DNA of 39,747 nt from Escherichia phage Vec13: the sequence record NC_048023.1. One strand, 5' to 3'. This document shows, in pieces, positions 1 through 39,747 of this stretch (positions within the stretch are counted from its first letter, which is position 1; each line of letters starts with the position of its first letter). The notes below the pieces were generated by a model, which was given only the letters and a program-made list of their open reading frames with translations, made no database searches and was not told where the DNA came from. A program made the translations under genes and the position numbers.

Positions 1-179
1 TCTCACAGTTCAAGAACCTCAAGTCTCCCCATAGGCCCTCTTTAAGTCCAGACCAAAGGCCCTACCCCAGTCTATCATAAGGTTAGACCGATGGTCAAGA
101 CTTCAGGTCAACGATAGGTGGTGACTATGGCTTAGGGAAGGACGATAGGTGGTGACTATAGGTCTGTCTTTGAGTCTCT
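1..179. repeat. Left direct terminal repeat (DTR), identical to 39569..39747
   Basis: First 179 nt are repeated exactly at the right end of the window; T7-like genomes carry 150-250 bp DTRs. Confidence 0.9.
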
Positions 180-200
180 ATCTGTATCAGACCTTGAGTC

Positions 201-245
201 ACTACCTACAGTCTAACTACCTACAGTCTAACTACCTACAGTCAT
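201..245. repeat. Tandem 15-bp repeats (actacctacagtcta x3) just inside left DTR; further cctacagt copies to about 294
   Basis: Direct reading; similar cctacagt/cctacggt motifs recur at 39490..39540 next to the right DTR, analogous to T7 concatemer-junction short repeats. Confidence 0.7.
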
Positions 246-400
246 AGACCATCGGTAATGCCACTACCTACAGTCAGAGACCTACAGTTAATAGACACAA
301 AGGATATAGACTTAAGGTCTAAGACATGTTAGTCAAAGACTATATCCTCTTACACCAAGGGGCCGACGATAGCTTAATCAATATTATTTCAAATTACCTA

Positions 401-429
401 TTGACTACAGGTCCAGACTATGGCTTAAT
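401..429 (+). promoter_or_regulatory. Putative host sigma70 early promoter (TTGACT-N17-cTTAAT with upstream TG)
   Basis: -35 TTGACT at 401-406, extended -10-like TGgCTTAAT at 421-429; position matches T7 A1-A3 early promoter region. Confidence 0.35.
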
Positions 430-710
430 AGCTTCCGTCAACACGACACGGTAACAACCGGATAGTGAAGACGCCTGGTCATCCAGGTTAAGTAGACAGC
501 CTGATAAGTCATACGAACAACAGGCAGATGACAATAAGGTAGTAAGGTCGCTGAGGGCTTCCACTTCAGCAGGTCGGAAAGGTCCTAAAACCTAACGAGA
601 GTCTGACCAGCTCGCCAAGTCTGCCACTGAGGTGGATAACCAGAGGAGGCAACGTGTCGCCCACTGAGGGGCTACAGCTCACGGTTTAGGTTAACAGGCT
701 AAACAAATGC

Positions 711-739
711 TTGACAAGATGTAACGATAAGATGTAAGC
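711..739 (+). promoter_or_regulatory. Putative host sigma70 early promoter (TTGACA with weak -10)
   Basis: Perfect -35 TTGACA at 711-716; candidate -10 TGTAAG/GTAAGC 16-17 nt downstream; location comparable to T7 A3. Confidence 0.3.
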
Positions 740-854
740 TGTACCACATCGAAACAACGGTGATGACCAACACTGAAATGGTCTACCTGAAGTCCTCTGA
801 CTGAAGGGAATGCTCTTTAACAATCTGGATAAACTCTTAATGTGCGCCGATAGC

Positions 855-912
855 GACTAACTACAGGGCCTTTGAGTCTACATCTGAAGGCCCTGACTGA
901 TAGTCACTAACA
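855..912 (+). promoter_or_regulatory. RNase III-like processing hairpin preceding first early gene
   Basis: Perfect 9-bp stem cagggcctt/aaggccctg with flanking conserved ctgactgatagtcactaac element shared with 1207..1260 and 1524..1577; T7 R0.3 lies at the equivalent place. Confidence 0.5.
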
Positions 913-929
913 ACCTAAGAGGATTCATT

Positions 930-1208
930 ATGAGACTGAACAAAGCTACAGCAGAAGCCTTTCGCAAGGAGCTTGAATCAAGATTATTGCGTGGAGTGAA
1001 GGAAGAAGCCGCGCGTTATAAAGAGAACGGTCTAACGTTCAAGCGCTTCATGTGGGATTGCTATCGTGGAGTGGGCCATAAGAAGTCGCAGGATATAATC
1101 ATCAGTAACAATACGGAAGTGCAAGTGGTGGGAGGATATATGACTAACGTGAAGGATTCACACATAGAGACCATGCTCAAGAATGCACTTAAAGATGTAG
1201 CCTACTAG
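930..1208 (+). CDS. Hypothetical early protein (92 aa), upstream of ocr
   Basis: ORF with SD aagagga 7 nt upstream of ATG; preceded by RNase III-like hairpin; no homolog recognised. Confidence 0.6.
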   Translation: MRLNKATAEAFRKELESRLLRGVKEEAARYKENGLTFKRFMWDCYRGVGHKKSQDIIISNNTEVQVVGGYMTNVKDSHIETMLKNALKDVAY

Positions 1209-1260
1209 TGATTAACTACAGGTCGTTAGACTGATAGCGGCCTGACTGATAGTCACTAAC
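1207..1260 (+). promoter_or_regulatory. RNase III-like processing hairpin (stem-bubble-stem)
   Basis: Inner stem caggtcg/cggcctg (one G-U), outer stem gtgatta/tagtcac; near-identical copy at 1524..1577. Confidence 0.5.
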
Positions 1261-1267
1261 TTAACGG

Positions 1268-1522
1268 ATGGACACTATGAAACACTTAAGCACAATCACT
1301 AATCACAATGAAGTATTCGTGAACACTAAAGGTTATGCGTGGATTCAGCTTAAAGAGATGAGAGGAGCGCGTCACCGTGTGGTAGTTCGCAAGGTCTCAA
1401 GCAAGCCGTTCAGCAACTACAGCGTAGATATTGTGCGTATAGACAACGAGACTTACCTGATAGACTCGCAGATAACCGTGAGTCCTACAGCGGGAATCTC
1501 AGCTCCTTATTTCGCTAACTGA
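1268..1522 (+). CDS. Hypothetical early protein (84 aa)
   Basis: ORF between two RNase III-like hairpins in the early region; alternative start at 1277; no homolog recognised. Confidence 0.55.
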   Translation: MDTMKHLSTITNHNEVFVNTKGYAWIQLKEMRGARHRVVVRKVSSKPFSNYSVDIVRIDNETYLIDSQITVSPTAGISAPYFAN

Positions 1523-1523
1523 G

Positions 1524-1577
1524 AGTGATTAACTACAGGTCGTTAGAATCATAGCGGCCTGACTGATAGTCACTAAC
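1524..1577 (+). promoter_or_regulatory. RNase III-like processing hairpin preceding ocr
   Basis: Second copy of the 1207..1260 element (differs at 3 positions in the loop). Confidence 0.5.
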
Positions 1578-1609
1578 ATACACACAAACAACTTTGAGAG
1601 GATATAACT

Positions 1610-1942
1610 ATGGAACGTAACGCTAACGCATACTATGAGCTGCTGGCTGCAACCGTTAAATGCTTCAACGAGCGTATTCAGTACGACGAAATAGCTGAAG
1701 GCGATGATTACCACGATGCGCTGCATGAGGTCGTAGACGGTAAGGTTCCGCACTATTACCACGAGATTTTCACGGTGATGGCTGCTGATGGTATAGACCA
1801 CGAGTTCGAAGACTCTGGGCTGATGCCTGAAACCAAGGACGTAACGCGTATACTACAAGCTCGCATCTATGAGGCGCTTTATAACGATGTGCTTAATAAC
1901 TCGGATGTGGTCTGGTTTGAGGCTGAAGAGGACTGCGAGTGA
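1610..1942 (+). CDS. ocr: Ocr-like DNA-mimic anti-restriction protein (T7 gp0.3 homolog)
   Basis: 110 aa; motif [43 protein letters not shown] closely matches T7 Ocr ([43 protein letters not shown]); acidic; SD gagagga. Confidence 0.9.
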
Positions 1943-2097
1943 TGGTAACTTATGGTCTCTGCCAGCACCATGTAGCCAACGCCCGGATTATGGTCAAGAC
2001 CGGGCAGTTAAACCATGATGCGGCTATGCGTCACCTGAAAGCGGTCTATGAGGGCCGCAAGCGTATACACGACAGTTTGCACGCTGAGGACAAGTAA
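1942..2097 (+). CDS. Small hypothetical early protein (51 aa)
   Basis: ATG overlaps ocr stop (tgATG); SD gagga 8 nt upstream; below ORF-track length cutoff; position analogous to T7 0.4-0.6 small genes. Confidence 0.35.
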   Translation: MVTYGLCQHHVANARIMVKTGQLNHDAAMRHLKAVYEGRKRIHDSLHAEDK

Positions 2098-2098
2098 C

Positions 2099-2224
2099 AT
2101 GTACCAGATAACTTATAGCAGTGAACAGGCGTTCTACGATGGGTGCTACGAGATGATGAAGCGCGGGGCTTGCTACGTGGCTAATCACCATAGCCTGACC
2201 ATAACGCTGACAGGTGGGTACTGA
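2099..2224 (+). CDS. Small hypothetical early protein (41 aa)
   Basis: Starts 1 nt after previous stop; SD gagga upstream; tightly packed. Confidence 0.3.
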   Translation: MYQITYSSEQAFYDGCYEMMKRGACYVANHHSLTITLTGGY

Positions 2225-2227
2225 GTG

Positions 2228-2265
2228 ATAGACGAGAGGTCATCGACTGATAGGTGGCCTCAAAG
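2228..2265 (+). promoter_or_regulatory. RNase III-like hairpin (aggtcat ... gtggcct motif)
   Basis: gaggtca pairs with tggcctc (one G-U); same aggtca/tggcct core as hairpins at 6084, 13374, 36491. Confidence 0.4.
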
Positions 2266-2295
2266 ATTACCACTTGCATTGATAGGAGAATTACT

Positions 2296-2463
2296 ATGAA
2301 ATTTACAATCATCGCACTTTACGTAACCATTATTCTATCTTGGCTTACTGCGGTGCTCACTGATGGTAACGCATTACGACTGGGCTGGCTGGCAGTGGAC
2401 ATTATATTCTCTCCGGTAGGTGTCGTGCGCGGCATCTTGATGTGGATTGGACTGGCGGGATAA
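2296..2463 (+). CDS. Small hydrophobic (2-TM) early membrane protein (55 aa from ATG at 2296)
   Basis: SD ataggag then ATG; sequence MKFTIIALYVTIILSWLTAVL...VGVVRGILMWIGLAG is two predicted TM helices; ORF track gives longer 2254 start without RBS. Confidence 0.55.
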   Translation: MKFTIIALYVTIILSWLTAVLTDGNALRLGWLAVDIIFSPVGVVRGILMWIGLAG

Positions 2464-2466
2464 ACT

Positions 2467-2667
2467 ATGAGTCTTGCACTATTGATAGCCATAGGCTATG
2501 GACTTATCGCCTACGTGCTGGTGAGAGACATCAACAAAGCGCGTAAAGTCTACAAATTAAACTATGTACGTCTGGGCCGCTGGACTGTACGTCAACCTAA
2601 CGGACGATTCATGCGTAACTTAGCGAACGTCTGGGATATAGCAACACTTGGGAGCAAACTACAATGA
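2467..2667 (+). CDS. Small early membrane protein (66 aa, N-terminal TM helix)
   Basis: MSLALLIAIGYGLIAYVLV hydrophobic N-terminus followed by basic tail; starts 4 nt after previous stop. Confidence 0.5.
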   Translation: MSLALLIAIGYGLIAYVLVRDINKARKVYKLNYVRLGRWTVRQPNGRFMRNLANVWDIATLGSKLQ

Positions 2668-2990
2668 ACAAGTCATACGGGATTAATCTGGTACACTCTA
2701 TGGATGCAGACATGCAAATGTTAAGCCTACTGGCTACCGGGTATCGTCACGGAACGTCAAGTCACTCCGCACGTCAACAGCAGGAGAGGGACCGGGTACT
2801 ACAAGCAAGACTCAGGGCGGAGGGCCATAAGTCCGAACTGATGTGTCTGGCGTATGGTGGACGACCAATCACTGACGATGGTAAACTTCTGGTCTCAGGC
2901 TGGAAGGCGATAGACCAACGGTCAACCATCAAGCACACGACTCATGGTGACTTCAGTCATCTTCACGCTAACCCTCTGATATGCAAGTGA
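2664..2990 (+). CDS. Hypothetical early protein (108 aa) occupying the position of T7 gene 0.7
   Basis: ORF overlapping previous stop by 4 nt; no protein kinase motifs; unknown function. Confidence 0.5.
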   Translation: MNKSYGINLVHSMDADMQMLSLLATGYRHGTSSHSARQQQERDRVLQARLRAEGHKSELMCLAYGGRPITDDGKLLVSGWKAIDQRSTIKHTTHGDFSHLHANPLICK

Positions 2991-2995
2991 TTCTG

Positions 2996-3018
2996 ACTTA
3001 ACTATCACTATAGGACTC
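2996..3018 (+). promoter_or_regulatory. Phage RNAP promoter immediately upstream of the RNAP gene
   Basis: cttaACTATCACTATAGGAct matches the 11-copy phage promoter consensus; +1 G at 3013. Confidence 0.7.
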
Positions 3019-3087
3019 AAGGTCTAAGACTCCAAGTGAAAGACCAAAGAGACTTTAAGTGAAAGACTAATAACAAGGACTTTAAGT

Positions 3088-5769
3088 ATGAGCGTCATCT
3101 CTATTGATAAACACGACTTCTCTGATGTGTCGAACGCCATTGAGCCGTTTAACCTGCTGGCCGACCACTACGGGCAAGACCTTGCAGTCAAACAGCTTCA
3201 GCTTGAGCATGAGGCATACACTGAAGGCGAGCGACGTTTCATCAAAAACCTTGAGCGACAGACTGAGCGCGGGGAACTGGCAGACAATCAGGTCGCCAAG
3301 CCTTTGATGCAGACTCTGGTTCCTAAGATTGCGCAAGCCGTCAAGGAGTGGCACGAAGGTCCAGACGGGAAGCTGTCAACCTCACGTCCGAGCGTAGCGT
3401 TCACCATGTTAAGCACTGAAGAGAAGGCCGTCAAGGACCGCTCTCTTCGCATCTCCTGCGAGTCTGCTGCGGTTATCATACTGAAGGTCATCCTCTCCAA
3501 GCTGGTCAAGCCTGAAGGTATACCGATTACACCGATGGCCTCCGCGATAGGTCGCACACTTGAGGATGAAATCCGATTCGGTCGCATTCGTGACAAGGAG
3601 AAGGAGCACTTCAAGAAGGCGATAGCTGATAACCTGAACAAGAGAGCCGGGGCATCATACAAGAAAGCCTACATGCAAGCGGTCGAGACATCCATGCTGG
3701 AGCAAGGCCAACTAGAAGATGCGTGGGGAACTTGGAGTCCGACCGAGGCTGTCCACGTTGGAATCAAGATGCTGGAGATTGTCATACAGTCAACACAACT
3801 GGTCGAGCTTAAGCGTTACGGTGCTGGCAATGCAGCGGCTGACGTTGAGATGGTCCACCTGTCAGACTTCTGGGTCAAGAAGATGGCACAACGCGGCTTC
3901 AGCCTTGCGGGTATCGCTCCAGTCTACCAACCTTGCGTAGTTCCACCTAAGCCGTGGACTGGTGTCGTAGGCGGTGGGTACTGGGCCAAAGGTCGCAGAC
4001 CATTACCACTGATTCGCTTAGGGTCTAAGTCTGCGGTGGCACGTTACGAAGACGTGTATATGCCTGAAGTATATGACGCTGTTAACATCATCCAGAATAC
4101 ACCTTGGAAAGTAAACAAGAAGGTTCTTGACGTGGTGAACATGGTCGAGAAGTTGAACAACACGCCTATTGATGACATCCCTCAGATGGAGCCACTGAAG
4201 CCTGAAGACTATGCGGGTGAGACTGAAGAGGAACTCAAGGCATGGAAGAAGGCTGCTGCTGGTATCTACCGCCGAGAGAAGGCCCGGCAGTCACGTAGAT
4301 TGTCACTGAGCTTTATCGTTAACCAAGCGAACAAGTTCTCTCAGTTCAAGGCCATCTGGTTCCCGTACAACATGGACTGGCGCGGTCGCGTCTACGCTGT
4401 GCCGATGTTCAACCCTCAGGGTAACGACATGCAAAAGGGTCTCCTGACTCTGGCAGTCGGTAAGCCTATTGGTGCTGATGGTTTCAAATGGCTGAAGGTC
4501 CACGGTGCAAACTGTGCGGGTATTGATAAAGTAACCTTCGAGGAGCGCATCAAGTGGGTGGAAGATAACCACGACAACATCATGGCTACCGCTAAGGCAC
4601 CGATGGACAGCATTGAGTGGTGGGGGAAGTTAGACTCTCCTTTCTGCTTCCTTGCGTTCTGCTTCGAGTATGCTGGCGTGATGCACCACGGATTGTCTTA
4701 CTCCTGCTCGCTGCCGATAGCTTTCGATGGGTCCTGCTCTGGGATTCAGCACTTCAGCGCTATGCTTCGTGACCACATCGGTGGACATGCAGTAAACCTG
4801 ACGCCTTCCGGTAAGGTCCAAGACATCTACCGCATCGTGTCTGACCGCATTGAGGAAGAGCTTAAAGTCCTGCTGGTTAACGGCACGGACAACGAGATGG
4901 TAACTCACGAGGACAAGAAAACTGGTGAGATTACCGAGCGTCTCAAGCTGGGGACACGAGAGCTGGCCCGTCAGTGGCTGACCTACGGTATGTCACGAAA
5001 GGTCACTAAGCGCTCAGTCATGACTCTGGCCTACGGGTCGAAAGAGTACGGATTCGCAGACCAAGTATACGAGGACATCGTGATGCCAGCGATTGACTCA
5101 GGGTCTGGCGCTATGTTCACTGAACCAAGCCAAGCATCTCGCTTCATGGCTAAGATGATTTGGGAAGCTGTGAGTGTGACCGTAGTTGCTGCGGTTGACG
5201 CGATGAAATGGCTTCAGGGTGCTGCCAAGCTGCTGGCGGCTGAAGTGAAGGACAAGAAGACGGGTGAAATCCTGAAGCCTTGCCTTCCGGTACACTGGGT
5301 CACACCTGATGGGTTCCCGGTCTGGCAGGAATACCGCAAGAAGGATACCACTCGTCTGAATCTGATGTTCTTAGGGTCATTCAACCTTCAGCCTACCGTC
5401 AACAAAGGCACGAAGAAAGAGCTGGATAAGCACAAGCAGGAGTCAGGCATTAGCCCGAACTTCGTCCACTCACAAGATGGTAGCCACCTCCGCAAGACTG
5501 TAGTCCATACTCACCGCAAGTATGGCGTGATGTCGTTCGCAGTGATTCACGATAGCTTCGGGACCATCCCGGCTGACGCTGAGTATCTGTTCCGTGGGGT
5601 CCGTGAGACTATGGTCGAGACCTACCGCGACAACGATGTGCTGCTTGACTTCTACGAGCAGTTTGAATACCAGCTTCACGAGAGCCAGCGCGATAAGTTG
5701 CCAGAGCTTCCGAAGAAAGGTAAACTGAATATCGAAGACATCTTGTCTTCAGACTTTGCATTCGCTTAA
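3088..5769 (+). CDS. Single-subunit DNA-directed RNA polymerase (T7 gp1 homolog)
   Basis: 893 aa; long colinear identity with T7 RNAP incl. FPYNMDWRGRVYAV, LPIAFDGSCSGIQHFSAMLRD, VHSQDGSHLRKTV, HDSFGT, C-terminal FAFA. Confidence 0.98.
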   Translation: MSVISIDKHDFSDVSNAIEPFNLLADHYGQDLAVKQLQLEHEAYTEGERRFIKNLERQTERGELADNQVAKPLMQTLVPKIAQAVKEWHEGPDGKLSTSRPSVAFTMLSTEEKAVKDRSLRISCESAAVIILKVILSKLVKPEGIPITPMASAIGRTLEDEIRFGRIRDKEKEHFKKAIADNLNKRAGASYKKAYMQAVETSMLEQGQLEDAWGTWSPTEAVHVGIKMLEIVIQSTQLVELKRYGAGNAAADVEMVHLSDFWVKKMAQRGFSLAGIAPVYQPCVVPPKPWTGVVGGGYWAKGRRPLPLIRLGSKSAVARYEDVYMPEVYDAVNIIQNTPWKVNKKVLDVVNMVEKLNNTPIDDIPQMEPLKPEDYAGETEEELKAWKKAAAGIYRREKARQSRRLSLSFIVNQANKFSQFKAIWFPYNMDWRGRVYAVPMFNPQGNDMQKGLLTLAVGKPIGADGFKWLKVHGANCAGIDKVTFEERIKWVEDNHDNIMATAKAPMDSIEWWGKLDSPFCFLAFCFEYAGVMHHGLSYSCSLPIAFDGSCSGIQHFSAMLRDHIGGHAVNLTPSGKVQDIYRIVSDRIEEELKVLLVNGTDNEMVTHEDKKTGEITERLKLGTRELARQWLTYGMSRKVTKRSVMTLAYGSKEYGFADQVYEDIVMPAIDSGSGAMFTEPSQASRFMAKMIWEAVSVTVVAAVDAMKWLQGAAKLLAAEVKDKKTGEILKPCLPVHWVTPDGFPVWQEYRKKDTTRLNLMFLGSFNLQPTVNKGTKKELDKHKQESGISPNFVHSQDGSHLRKTVVHTHRKYGVMSFAVIHDSFGTIPADAEYLFRGVRETMVETYRDNDVLLDFYEQFEYQLHESQRDKLPELPKKGKLNIEDILSSDFAFA

Positions 5770-33846: not shown

Positions 33847-35877
33847 ATGTCCACGATTACACAATTCCCTTCAGGAAGCACTCAGTACAGGATTGAGTTC
33901 GACTACCTAGCCAGAACGTTTGTTGTTGTTACGCTGGTGAATAGCTCTAACCCTACCCTGAACCGTGTACTGGAAGTTGGTCGAGATTACCGATTCCTTA
34001 ATCCAACGATGATTGAGATGTTGGTTGACCAATCAGGTTTCGACATCGTTCGCATTCACCGTCAGACTGGAACTGACTTAGTGGTAGACTTCAGGAATGG
34101 CTCAGTGTTGACAGCTAGTGACCTGACAAATTCAGAGCTTCAGGCTATCCATATTGCAGAAGAAGGTCGAGACCAAACGGTTGACTTAGCGAAGGAATAT
34201 GCCGATGCTGCTGGTAGCTCTGCTGGCAACGCTAAGGATAGCGAGGACGAAGCACGCCGAATCGCTGAGAGTATCAGGGCGGCTGGTCTAATTGGTTATA
34301 TTACCCGTCGCTCCTTCGAGAAAGGCTACAACGTTACAACATGGAGCGAGGTCCTGCTATGGGAAGAGGATGGTGATTATTACCGCTGGGATGGTACGCT
34401 TCCAAAGAACGTTCCTGCTGGTTCAACTCCTGAAACTTCCGGTGGGATTGGATTAGGTGCGTGGGTTAGTGTTGGTGATGCTGCTTTAAGAAGTCAGATT
34501 TCAAACCCGGAAGGGGCAATACTCTACCCAGAATTACAGATGGCGCGCTGGCGAGATGAGGGTGATGTTCGCGGATGGGGTGCTAAAGGTGATGGTTCTG
34601 CGGATGATACAGAGGCTTTCAAGGCAGCACTGGCAACAGGAAAGAATCTATATATCCCCGTTGGTATATACATCATTAAAGAGACTTTGTACTTTAAGAA
34701 CCAAGTTATTAAAGGTGGGGGAATATCTCCATCACCAAGTCTTGGTACAATCCTAGCAATCTCTCACAATGAAGCAGCTTTTAAGTATGACGTTAACTCT
34801 GGATACTCCATGGGTGGCTACTTAGGCGGTTTCTTCATTGATTATGGTGAGAACAAGCCAGACAACTATGGTGGTCGCAAAGGTATTGATATTGGTGATG
34901 CATCGCAGACAGCATGGCCTTCACAATTTATCATTGAGAACATCATAGTACGTGGTGCGTACTTTGGTATTCATGACGTGACAGGGGCTTTTCAGTATAC
35001 CATGCGTAACGTATTGGCGATTAATTGCTGGGAAGGTTTCCGTAAGCATATTGGTACTACAGTCCTAATGGATACATGCTACGCACTTAATTGTTATCAG
35101 GCGTTCAATTTTGCAAACGTGTACAACATGACTATGAACAATTGTGCAATGGACGGCTGTAATGATATACAAGGTCTACAGGCTTTTGATATTAACAACT
35201 GTAAAGGTATGGTAATAAATGGCATGTACAGCGAGAACTGTGAGATTCATCATAATGGACATGCCTCTATATATATTCATGGGGACTCAACAGTAACACT
35301 TAACGGATATGCACTACATTCCCACAAAGTTCTGGCTAGTTCTGGGGAGGCTTACTTCTTACGAGCACATGAAAGTTCTCGCGTTACTGTTGATGGTATC
35401 TTCTTCGGGGAAGACCTGACGTCTACTGCTGTATTCATGTACCCAGTCCTGTCTTCTGGGGATGCTAGAGTTAAGCTTGGAACTACTAGATTGAAGTTGT
35501 GGACTGGTGCTACGGGTGGGGCGTCACTGGCTGCACTAGGTAACAGTTTGATTGAGTATGACAACACAGTCTTTGTTCCAACAGTCACGGTCGGATGGTG
35601 TAGCAACAACGGAGTTGTAGCCAAAGGTACTCTTGCAGTTAACACTACGCTTGAACCAGGTGCTGACCTGAATGCCGGTAATATTACCCTCACTGGTGAC
35701 TACAAGCCAACTAAGGGGGATGTGCTTGTGTATGGTGCTACCTTTGATGTTAAGTCATGTTCAATTATTCTCAAGCCAATAGGGGAGAATTTATGTAATG
35801 TGTACATTAAGAACTTAAGTGCAGGTGGTAGTGCTACTCTTCTTGGTGACTTGATGGTACAGGCCATCCGACGCTAG
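33847..35877 (+). CDS. Tailspike/tail fiber: T7 gp17-like N-terminal adaptor plus pectate-lyase-like beta-helix (putative polysaccharide depolymerase)
   Basis: 676 aa; N-terminus FDYLARTFVVVTLV, DYRF, IHIAEE match T7 gp17; from about residue 240 WGAKGDGSADDTEAFKAAL and repetitive G/N/C-rich stretches typical of pectate lyase superfamily tailspikes. Confidence 0.9.
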   Translation: MSTITQFPSGSTQYRIEFDYLARTFVVVTLVNSSNPTLNRVLEVGRDYRFLNPTMIEMLVDQSGFDIVRIHRQTGTDLVVDFRNGSVLTASDLTNSELQAIHIAEEGRDQTVDLAKEYADAAGSSAGNAKDSEDEARRIAESIRAAGLIGYITRRSFEKGYNVTTWSEVLLWEEDGDYYRWDGTLPKNVPAGSTPETSGGIGLGAWVSVGDAALRSQISNPEGAILYPELQMARWRDEGDVRGWGAKGDGSADDTEAFKAALATGKNLYIPVGIYIIKETLYFKNQVIKGGGISPSPSLGTILAISHNEAAFKYDVNSGYSMGGYLGGFFIDYGENKPDNYGGRKGIDIGDASQTAWPSQFIIENIIVRGAYFGIHDVTGAFQYTMRNVLAINCWEGFRKHIGTTVLMDTCYALNCYQAFNFANVYNMTMNNCAMDGCNDIQGLQAFDINNCKGMVINGMYSENCEIHHNGHASIYIHGDSTVTLNGYALHSHKVLASSGEAYFLRAHESSRVTVDGIFFGEDLTSTAVFMYPVLSSGDARVKLGTTRLKLWTGATGGASLAALGNSLIEYDNTVFVPTVTVGWCSNNGVVAKGTLAVNTTLEPGADLNAGNITLTGDYKPTKGDVLVYGATFDVKSCSIILKPIGENLCNVYIKNLSAGGSATLLGDLMVQAIRR

Positions 35878-39360: not shown

Positions 39361-39568
39361 AGACCTAAGGTCAGTTCATAGCTAACGCTACTCTACTGAC
39401 CTTAGCTACTGTAGTCAAGGACTTTAGGTAACACCTTAATAGAAGCTCACTTAGGGTCATCCTACTTATTGGTCTATCCTATTGTCGCCTGACCTACGGT
39501 CCTTGACCTACAGTGGCTGTGGCCTACAGTAGTGACGATGAGTTTTGGACCAAAAGTTTGAGACCACA

Positions 39569-39747
39569 TCTCACAGTTCAAGAACCTCAAGTCTCCCCAT
39601 AGGCCCTCTTTAAGTCCAGACCAAAGGCCCTACCCCAGTCTATCATAAGGTTAGACCGATGGTCAAGACTTCAGGTCAACGATAGGTGGTGACTATGGCT
39701 TAGGGAAGGACGATAGGTGGTGACTATAGGTCTGTCTTTGAGTCTCT
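39569..39747. repeat. Right direct terminal repeat (DTR), identical to 1..179
   Basis: Exact 179-nt repeat of the window start. Confidence 0.9.

Follow-up and report, generated by a model that had tools for sequence, protein, structure and literature searches.

The ocr locus in the early region of Escherichia phage Vec13

We analysed a 39,747-bp stretch of DNA (the window) that is the complete T7-family genome of Escherichia phage Vec13, with a direct terminal repeat of 180 bp (positions 1–180 equal 39568–39747). Vec13 is a K1F-like phage of the genus Kayfunavirus (Studiervirinae), and its left 3.1 kb is 95% identical to that of Escherichia phage Peacock and 92% identical to that of K1F, both of which belong to Kayfunavirus. 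The gene at 1610–1942 is very likely the gene 0.3 (ocr) orthologue of this K1F-like phage, and it lies among the following features:

401–429, + strand: candidate sigma-70-type promoter (TTGACT, 17 nt, CTTAAT), found by a relaxed hexamer scan and aligning with T7 promoter A1
711–740, + strand: candidate sigma-70-type promoter (TTGACA, then TGTAAG or TAAGCT, then GTACCACATCGAAAC), found by a relaxed hexamer scan and aligning with T7 promoter A3
849–912, + strand: hairpin 5' of the gene for the 92-aa protein, in the long-loop form also seen 5' of gp0.2 in K1F and Peacock
930–1208, + strand: gene for a 92-aa basic protein, PHROG 9817 (unknown function)
1207–1263, + strand: hairpin preceding the gp0.2-like gene (fold z=-4.3), with 95% identity to the hairpin 5' of ocr
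1277–1522, + strand: gene for an 81-aa basic protein, homologue of K1F gp0.2 (94% identical), PHROG 10124 (unknown function)
1524–1580, + strand: hairpin directly 5' of ocr, with the shape of the T7 R0.3 RNase III site (-23.9 kcal/mol, z=-5.3)
1596–1602, + strand: Shine-Dalgarno sequence GAGAGGA of ocr, 7 nt before the ATG; the Peacock ocr ribosome-binding site is annotated at the equivalent site
1610–1942, + strand: very probable ocr (gene 0.3) coding sequence, 110 aa, short-form Kayfunavirus allele, with an ATG start and a TGA stop at 1940–1942
1923–1932, + strand: 10-nt repeat CTGAAGAGGA at the junction of a 177-nt deletion, from a DNA alignment of Vec13, Peacock, K1F and T147P5
1928–1944, + strand: GAGGA (1928–1932) and ATG (1942–1944) of the next gene, inside the last ocr codons (EEDCE), from the sequence and the Peacock ribosome-binding-site annotation
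1942–2097, + strand: 51-aa gene, homologue of T7 gp0.4 (BLASTP 41% identity over 41 aa, E=2e-7), PHROG 5058
3088–5769: single-subunit RNA polymerase gene

The phage promoter (AACTATCACTATAGGGA) occurs in eleven copies in the window, the first of them at position 3000, and our search of the whole window found no phage-type promoter upstream of that position, indicating that ocr is a class I early gene. The rest of its surroundings are those of a class I early gene as well, comprising the A1- and A3-like promoter candidates, an R0.3-like hairpin and a gp0.4 homologue downstream. A stricter, generic consensus scan for sigma-70 promoters and terminators, whose count was no better than that of shuffled sequences, flagged neither 401–429 nor 711–740. 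Because the generic scan did no better than chance, we infer from the alignment with T7 that these two sites may be A1- and A3-like host promoters. A scan of positions 1–3200 against Rfam gave no match. The phage-promoter-like site at 3000–3016 (AACTATCACTATAGGAC) has two mismatches relative to the consensus and lies ~70 nt 5' of the RNA polymerase gene; in the T7 record this position is occupied by an E. coli promoter (C).

The hairpin at 1524–1580 aligned to T7 positions 853–905 with 36 of 59 columns identical, and the consensus structure of eight copies, including that of T7, contains 18 pairs, six of them with compensatory changes. In T3 and T7, promoter A3 and gene 0.3 flank RNase III site R0.3 (PMC3276506); we took its position from that paper and from the fold, the T7 GenBank feature tables listing no RNase III sites. 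Given this location and the R0.3-like shape and sequence of the Vec13 hairpin, 1524–1580 is likely to be an RNase III processing site that makes the 5' end of the ocr mRNA.

At its 3' end, ocr overlaps the start of the next gene as TGATG, and Peacock is annotated with a 1-nt overlap at the same place. The overlap implies that ocr and the downstream gp0.4 homologue would be translationally coupled, as are T7 genes 0.3 and 0.4, which end and start, respectively, at position 1278. With a gp0.4 homologue next to ocr, the 0.3–0.4 arrangement is the same as in T7. The EEDCE end that contains the ribosome-binding site of the downstream gene is kept in almost all alleles, short and long.

Between ocr and gene 1 (1942–3088) we found no gp0.7-type kinase/shutoff gene; the interval contains five small ORFs of 41–108 aa, and the 108-aa protein encoded at 2664–2990 has no significant similarity to T7 gp0.7. 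JSS1_004, a protein of another Kayfunavirus phage, JSS1, was considered as an Ocr and set aside: it is a gp0.7-type kinase/shutoff protein, of which the Vec13 window has no counterpart. The Ocr of JSS1 is 90% identical to that of Vec13.

The protein encoded at 1610–1942 belongs to the Ocr family

Family membership was established with several collections. Pfam PF08684 ("DNA mimic ocr") matched the Vec13 protein with 111.2 bits (cutoff 25; E=3.8e-32), and PHROG 2568 ("ocr-like anti-restriction") matched it with E=7.8e-53. T7 Ocr chains from the PDB were matched by phmmer (HMMER) at about E=1e-28. By BLASTP, the Vec13 and T7 proteins are 57% identical over 91 aa, and their ungapped identity is 60% over residues 14–95 (49/82), rising to 74% over residues 39–88. 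The initial annotation, written without database searches, had described the core of T7 Ocr as shared almost residue for residue; the motif it quoted corresponds to residues 46–88, where 35 of 43 positions match T7 Ocr. It had proposed an alignment to T7 gp0.3 as a check, and in that alignment the likeness extends well beyond a short motif, covering residues 14–102 of both proteins without a gap and positions 6–96 of the 101 in the Pfam profile. Its description of the protein as acidic is equally accurate (27 D/E against 7 K/R, pI 4.22). The call of an Ocr-type DNA mimic is therefore upheld by the profile, PDB-sequence and PHROG matches, by the conserved acidic and dimer-interface residues described below, and by the T7-like context.

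Vec13 ocr is of a known kind: in Peacock and in K1F its orthologues carry the ocr annotation, and the family is among the best-studied anti-restriction families. The Peacock orthologue (QEG09667.1), at the same locus and likewise 110 aa long, has 96% identity and bears the annotation "overcome classical restriction"; Vec13 Ocr has K17, C18 and K45 where the Peacock protein has E, A and Q. K1F gp0.3, again at the same locus and annotated as putative ocr, is 92% identical over residues 1–103. T7 Ocr (gp0.3; PDB 1S7Z; complexes 2Y7C, 7BST, 7EEW, 8Q56, 9EX7 and 8V45) belongs to the same Pfam family, and in both phages ocr is an early gene preceded by an R0.3-type hairpin and followed by an overlapping gp0.4 homologue. 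The two loci differ in that ocr is the first gene from the left end in T7, starting at 925, whereas in Vec13 it is the third or fourth, starting at 1610. The two proteins differ at their ends: the N-terminal 13 residues and the C-terminal tail of Vec13 Ocr are unrelated to those of T7 Ocr, and the tail is shorter and less acidic (6/15 residues acidic, versus 14/22 in T7).

We also compared the Vec13 protein with anti-restriction proteins of other families. The T3-type gene 0.3 product, a SAM lyase, occupies the same genomic slot and serves the same purpose, escape from type I restriction-modification (R-M) and BREX (preprint 10.1101/2023.02.27.530186; PMC3276506), but is an unrelated protein that acts by SAM depletion. 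Vec13 Ocr had no match to the SAM hydrolase/lyase family; among Pfam families it matched PF08684 only, and among PDB sequences Ocr chains only. NCBIfam returned nothing for Ocr or for its neighbours. ArdA and other DNA mimics are likewise acidic and block type I R-M, but we detected no sequence relationship between these proteins and Vec13 Ocr, which matched only Ocr chains and the Ocr profile.

The acidic and dimer-interface residues of T7 Ocr are largely retained. Of the 20 acidic positions within residues 1–95 of T7 Ocr, 18 are acidic in Vec13 Ocr, and the net charge of the protein is -20, compared with -28 for T7 Ocr and -23 for Peacock Ocr. Vec13 and T7 share residues F54, A58 and L82 (T7 gene numbering), none of which varies across 29 Kayfunavirus sequences. 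Two of them, F54 and L82, are located at the interface of the Ocr dimer and also at that between Ocr and AriA of the PARIS system (PMC10802264; PMC9122126), and T7 escapes PARIS through the Ocr substitutions F54V and L82R (PMC9122126; PMC10802264). Pairwise dN/dS among five Kayfunavirus ocr alleles ranged from 0.10 to 0.52, with a value of 0.15 between Vec13 and Peacock, and residues 46–93 are invariant, indicating that ocr is maintained by purifying selection.

An AlphaFold2 (AF2) model of Vec13 Ocr, for which the alignment was shallow (29 sequences, none below 85% identity), had a pLDDT of 75 and contained four helices (residues 5–24, 34–42, 48–67 and 75–95). A Foldseek search of the PDB with this model returned T7 Ocr chains as its top five hits with probabilities of 0.95–0.99, yet with TM-scores of 0.31–0.33 and an rmsd of 14 Å. 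The model thus superposes poorly on the crystal and cryo-EM chains (TM-score 0.32) despite 54% sequence identity. Since the modelled packing is unreliable at a TM-score of ~0.32, assignment of the Ocr fold relies on sequence identity.

Type I restriction and BREX sites in the Vec13 genome

We counted recognition sites in the window. Type I sites were present in numbers close to those expected, which are given in brackets: EcoKI, 3 (5.4); EcoBI, 10 (6.9); EcoAI, 7 (8.1); EcoR124I, 10 (8.6). The recognition sequences behind these and the following counts are those that we take to apply to each system; for example, we take GGTAAG to be the BREX site and TTAN7GTCY to be an EcoDI-type site. GGTAAG was over-represented, with 38 copies against 17 expected, as were CAGCAG (75 copies, 31 expected) and AGACC (165 copies, 96 expected). 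With type I sites not depleted and 38 GGTAAG sites present, the phage has targets to protect, and an active inhibitor makes sense. Four EcoDI-type sites, at 278–1462, precede ocr in the DNA that enters first.

The first EcoKI, EcoBI, EcoAI and EcoR124I sites are all located at or beyond position 4960, and hence enter the cell after ocr. This arrangement fits the finding that, in Autographiviridae, only sites in the first-injected region matter (PMC12455610). A Kayfunavirus isolate of the BASEL collection and its relatives are described as sensitive chiefly to systems of types II and III (PMC11990801), a pattern that is consistent with the type I inhibition we propose for Vec13 Ocr.

Predicted action of Vec13 Ocr

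By analogy with T7, we propose the following course of events. The hairpin directly 5' of ocr would be where RNase III cuts the early transcript, and Ocr would be made from host transcripts within the first minutes of infection. The protein would dimerise, its surface carboxylates imitating the phosphate backbone of bent B-form DNA, and in type I R-M enzymes this decoy would fill the groove that binds DNA, so that neither restriction nor modification could proceed; T7 Ocr blocks both EcoKI restriction and methylation (PMC9122126). The T7 Ocr dimer also displaces DNA from BrxX by non-specific electrostatic mimicry of the backbone (PMC11842806), and through the same mimicry Vec13 Ocr could occupy the BREX methyltransferase BrxX/PglX. 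With the decoy in place, recognition sites that enter later would escape attack. Inhibition of type I R-M, and possibly of BREX, by Vec13 Ocr is thus a reasonable inference from its relationship to the T7 protein; our literature search found no paper testing any Kayfunavirus Ocr.

Several phenotypes are predicted. Vec13 should withstand type I R-M, and probably type I BREX as well, even though its genome contains sites for them, and its DNA should stay unmodified by type I methylases. Because F54 and L82 are conserved, Ocr-sensing abortive systems such as PARIS should also be able to detect Vec13 Ocr, and the phage is likely to be vulnerable to them. These predictions are useful for the choice of hosts or therapeutic targets, and add nothing new to the biology of Ocr itself.

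Short and long alleles of Kayfunavirus ocr

K1F and most relatives of Vec13 differ from it in carrying an additional ~55-aa module in the C-terminal part of Ocr. In this long form (169 aa in K1F gp0.3), an acidic linker and the module precede the same EEDCE end. Among the 120 Ocr protein clusters closest to that of Vec13, 45 are 110–122 aa long and 75 are 162–179 aa long. We compared short alleles (Vec13 and Peacock) with long alleles (K1F and T147P5) by DNA alignment of the region corresponding to Vec13 1885–1942 and K1F 1389–1631, and found that they are separated by an in-frame deletion of 177 nt at the short repeat CTGA(A/G)GAGGA. Across the same 120 clusters, short alleles have at least five different junctions, which suggests that the module has been lost recurrently.

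The ~55-aa module is present in 71 phage records, in every case as a fusion to Ocr, and belongs to no PHROG family. In one Ocr homologue (P0009), also a fusion, the C-terminal module continues at "...GRHLK" into the C-terminal half of the downstream gp0.4-like protein; this homologue carries a second precomputed Pfam domain, PF26807. The fusion raised the idea that the module is a paralogue of the downstream gp0.4-like protein, which was unsupported by BLASTP (E=0.05).

Upstream genes and alternative readings of the locus

The gene order 5' of ocr in Vec13 differs from that in Peacock and K1F. The order is gp0.2–ocr in K1F, 92-aa gene–ocr in TM1, gp0.2–92-aa gene–ocr in Peacock and T147P5, and 92-aa gene–gp0.2–ocr in Vec13, giving four upstream arrangements among five kayfunaviruses; T7 has neither gene. 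No record among 50,697 phage genomes contained the Vec13 junction between the 92-aa and gp0.2-like genes in one piece. The genes 5' of ocr (849–1610) act like cassettes bounded by ~55-nt RNase III-type hairpins, and each of the two genes has its own hairpin, leader and ribosome-binding site. An alternative ATG at 1268 would extend the gp0.2-like protein to 84 aa. The 20-nt 3' arm of the hairpins, CCTGACTGATAGTCACTAAC, was invariant in all eight copies compared, making it a plausible recombination point. Together, the two upstream genes resemble accessory cassettes that have been shuffled independently of one another. Homologues of the gp0.2-like protein occur in ~150-kb phages (phiWec190 and nepoznato, 73–74% identity) and, near the start of the genome, in ~71-kb phages (E20, EC1-UPM and SP5M, ~51% identity); their presence outside the T7 family suggests that this gene may be a mobile accessory gene.

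The initial annotation had gone further in proposing that ocr and the two genes upstream of it form a compact early anti-defence module, a claim that our data do not bear out. In its favour, each of the three is a small early gene in the leading region transcribed by the host, which the literature treats as an accessory region with counter-defence genes (Silas et al., preprint 10.1101/2023.04.06.535777), and gp0.2 homologues, in the manner of mobile accessory genes, are spread over several coliphage groups that are unrelated. The upstream genes may well be host-takeover or counter-defence genes. Against a module, both belong to PHROG families of unknown function, and neither protein had a match in Pfam, NCBIfam or PDB sequences. 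An AF2 model of the gp0.2-like protein (pLDDT 67; a family of only 40 homologue clusters, all at least 69% identical) gave no fold match, the best Foldseek PDB hit having E=0.73. Two peptide strings from the upstream proteins, searched in the Silas et al. screen supplement, were not matched among its accessory genes. A candidate identification of the upstream proteins as genes of that screen was rejected accordingly, with the exact peptides absent and nothing similar in the first of the four parts of its gene list, as was the lead offered by Aop1, which comes from a large, unrelated phage. The three genes also co-occur loosely, with gp0.2 only in K1F, the 92-aa gene only in TM1, the opposite order in Peacock and T147P5, and neither in T7. 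Homologues are found in different numbers of phage records (60 for the 92-aa gene and 102 for the gp0.2-like gene, some in unrelated phage groups, against 571 for Ocr), and the separate hairpin and ribosome-binding site of each gene argue in the same direction. We therefore consider it very improbable that Ocr and the products of the two upstream genes function jointly as a single module.

Two further readings concern Ocr itself. The protein could have the Ocr fold and yet differ from T7 Ocr in its main role or target range in vivo, acting mainly on BREX, on type III enzymes or on host RNA polymerase, or as a type I inhibitor that is weakened because its charge is lower, its tail short and its C-terminal module lost. 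T7 Ocr is itself a protein with several partners, with solved complexes that include AriA, BrxX/PglX and a type III methyltransferase, and it has also been cited as an inhibitor of host RNA synthesis (PMC12455610); moreover, the charge of Vec13 Ocr is reduced relative to T7 and its acidic tail shortened, K17 and K45 are two extra lysines relative to Peacock, and the polymorphism between long and short alleles suggests varying selection. However, non-specific backbone mimicry leads one to expect a partner range that is broad rather than shifted (PMC11842806), and conservation of 18 of the 20 core acidic positions, together with the invariant residues 46–93, argues for an unchanged surface. Solved T7 Ocr chains include 106–110 of 117 residues and lack the last ~10, consistent with a disordered tail that lies outside the folded mimic. 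We regard a shifted role as very improbable. That the Vec13 gene is a decaying remnant, a deletion derivative of a two-part Kayfunavirus Ocr that no longer functions, is suggested by the 177-nt deletion that separates it from the long form. Yet this in-frame deletion preserves both the native C-terminus and the downstream gene's ribosome-binding site, the Ocr domain is untouched, with the low dN/dS relative to Peacock given above, and T7 Ocr likewise lacks the C-terminal module. Short alleles, with their 45 clusters and at least five junctions, persist in nature. The probability that the gene is a remnant is accordingly negligible, and an Ocr orthologue with T7-like activity is the reading we prefer.

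As a broader and more speculative proposal, which we consider unlikely, the Vec13 allele would be one of several independent in-frame deletions of a Kayfunavirus-specific ~55-aa module that either has a second function or is a liability sensed by host immunity, and the repeated loss of this module, together with shuffling of the hairpin-bounded cassettes upstream, would be the record of an arms race still under way at the leading end of these genomes. What is mildly new here is comparative, namely the short/long polymorphism of Kayfunavirus Ocr and the reshuffling of upstream cassettes at conserved RNase III-type hairpins.

Other features of the Vec13 genome

The ORF at 326–454, the counterpart of K1F "gp0.1", encodes 42 aa in Vec13, where it is ended by TAA, whereas its length in both K1F and Peacock is 71 aa. 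The A1-like candidate promoter (401–429) overlaps this ORF, which may not be a real gene.

The tail spike gene (33847–35877) encodes an N-terminal domain of the T7 tail-fibre type and, after it, a pectate-lyase-like beta-helix. K1F uses an endosialidase. The Vec13 tail spike had no match to an endosialidase-type domain, suggesting a receptor other than K1, which is probably an O-antigen or a capsule of another type.

Just inside the 180-bp terminal repeat, at 201–282, lie 15-nt tandem repeats (ACTACCTACAGTCTA), and within the terminal repeat itself the sequence ACGATAGGTGGTGACTAT is duplicated.
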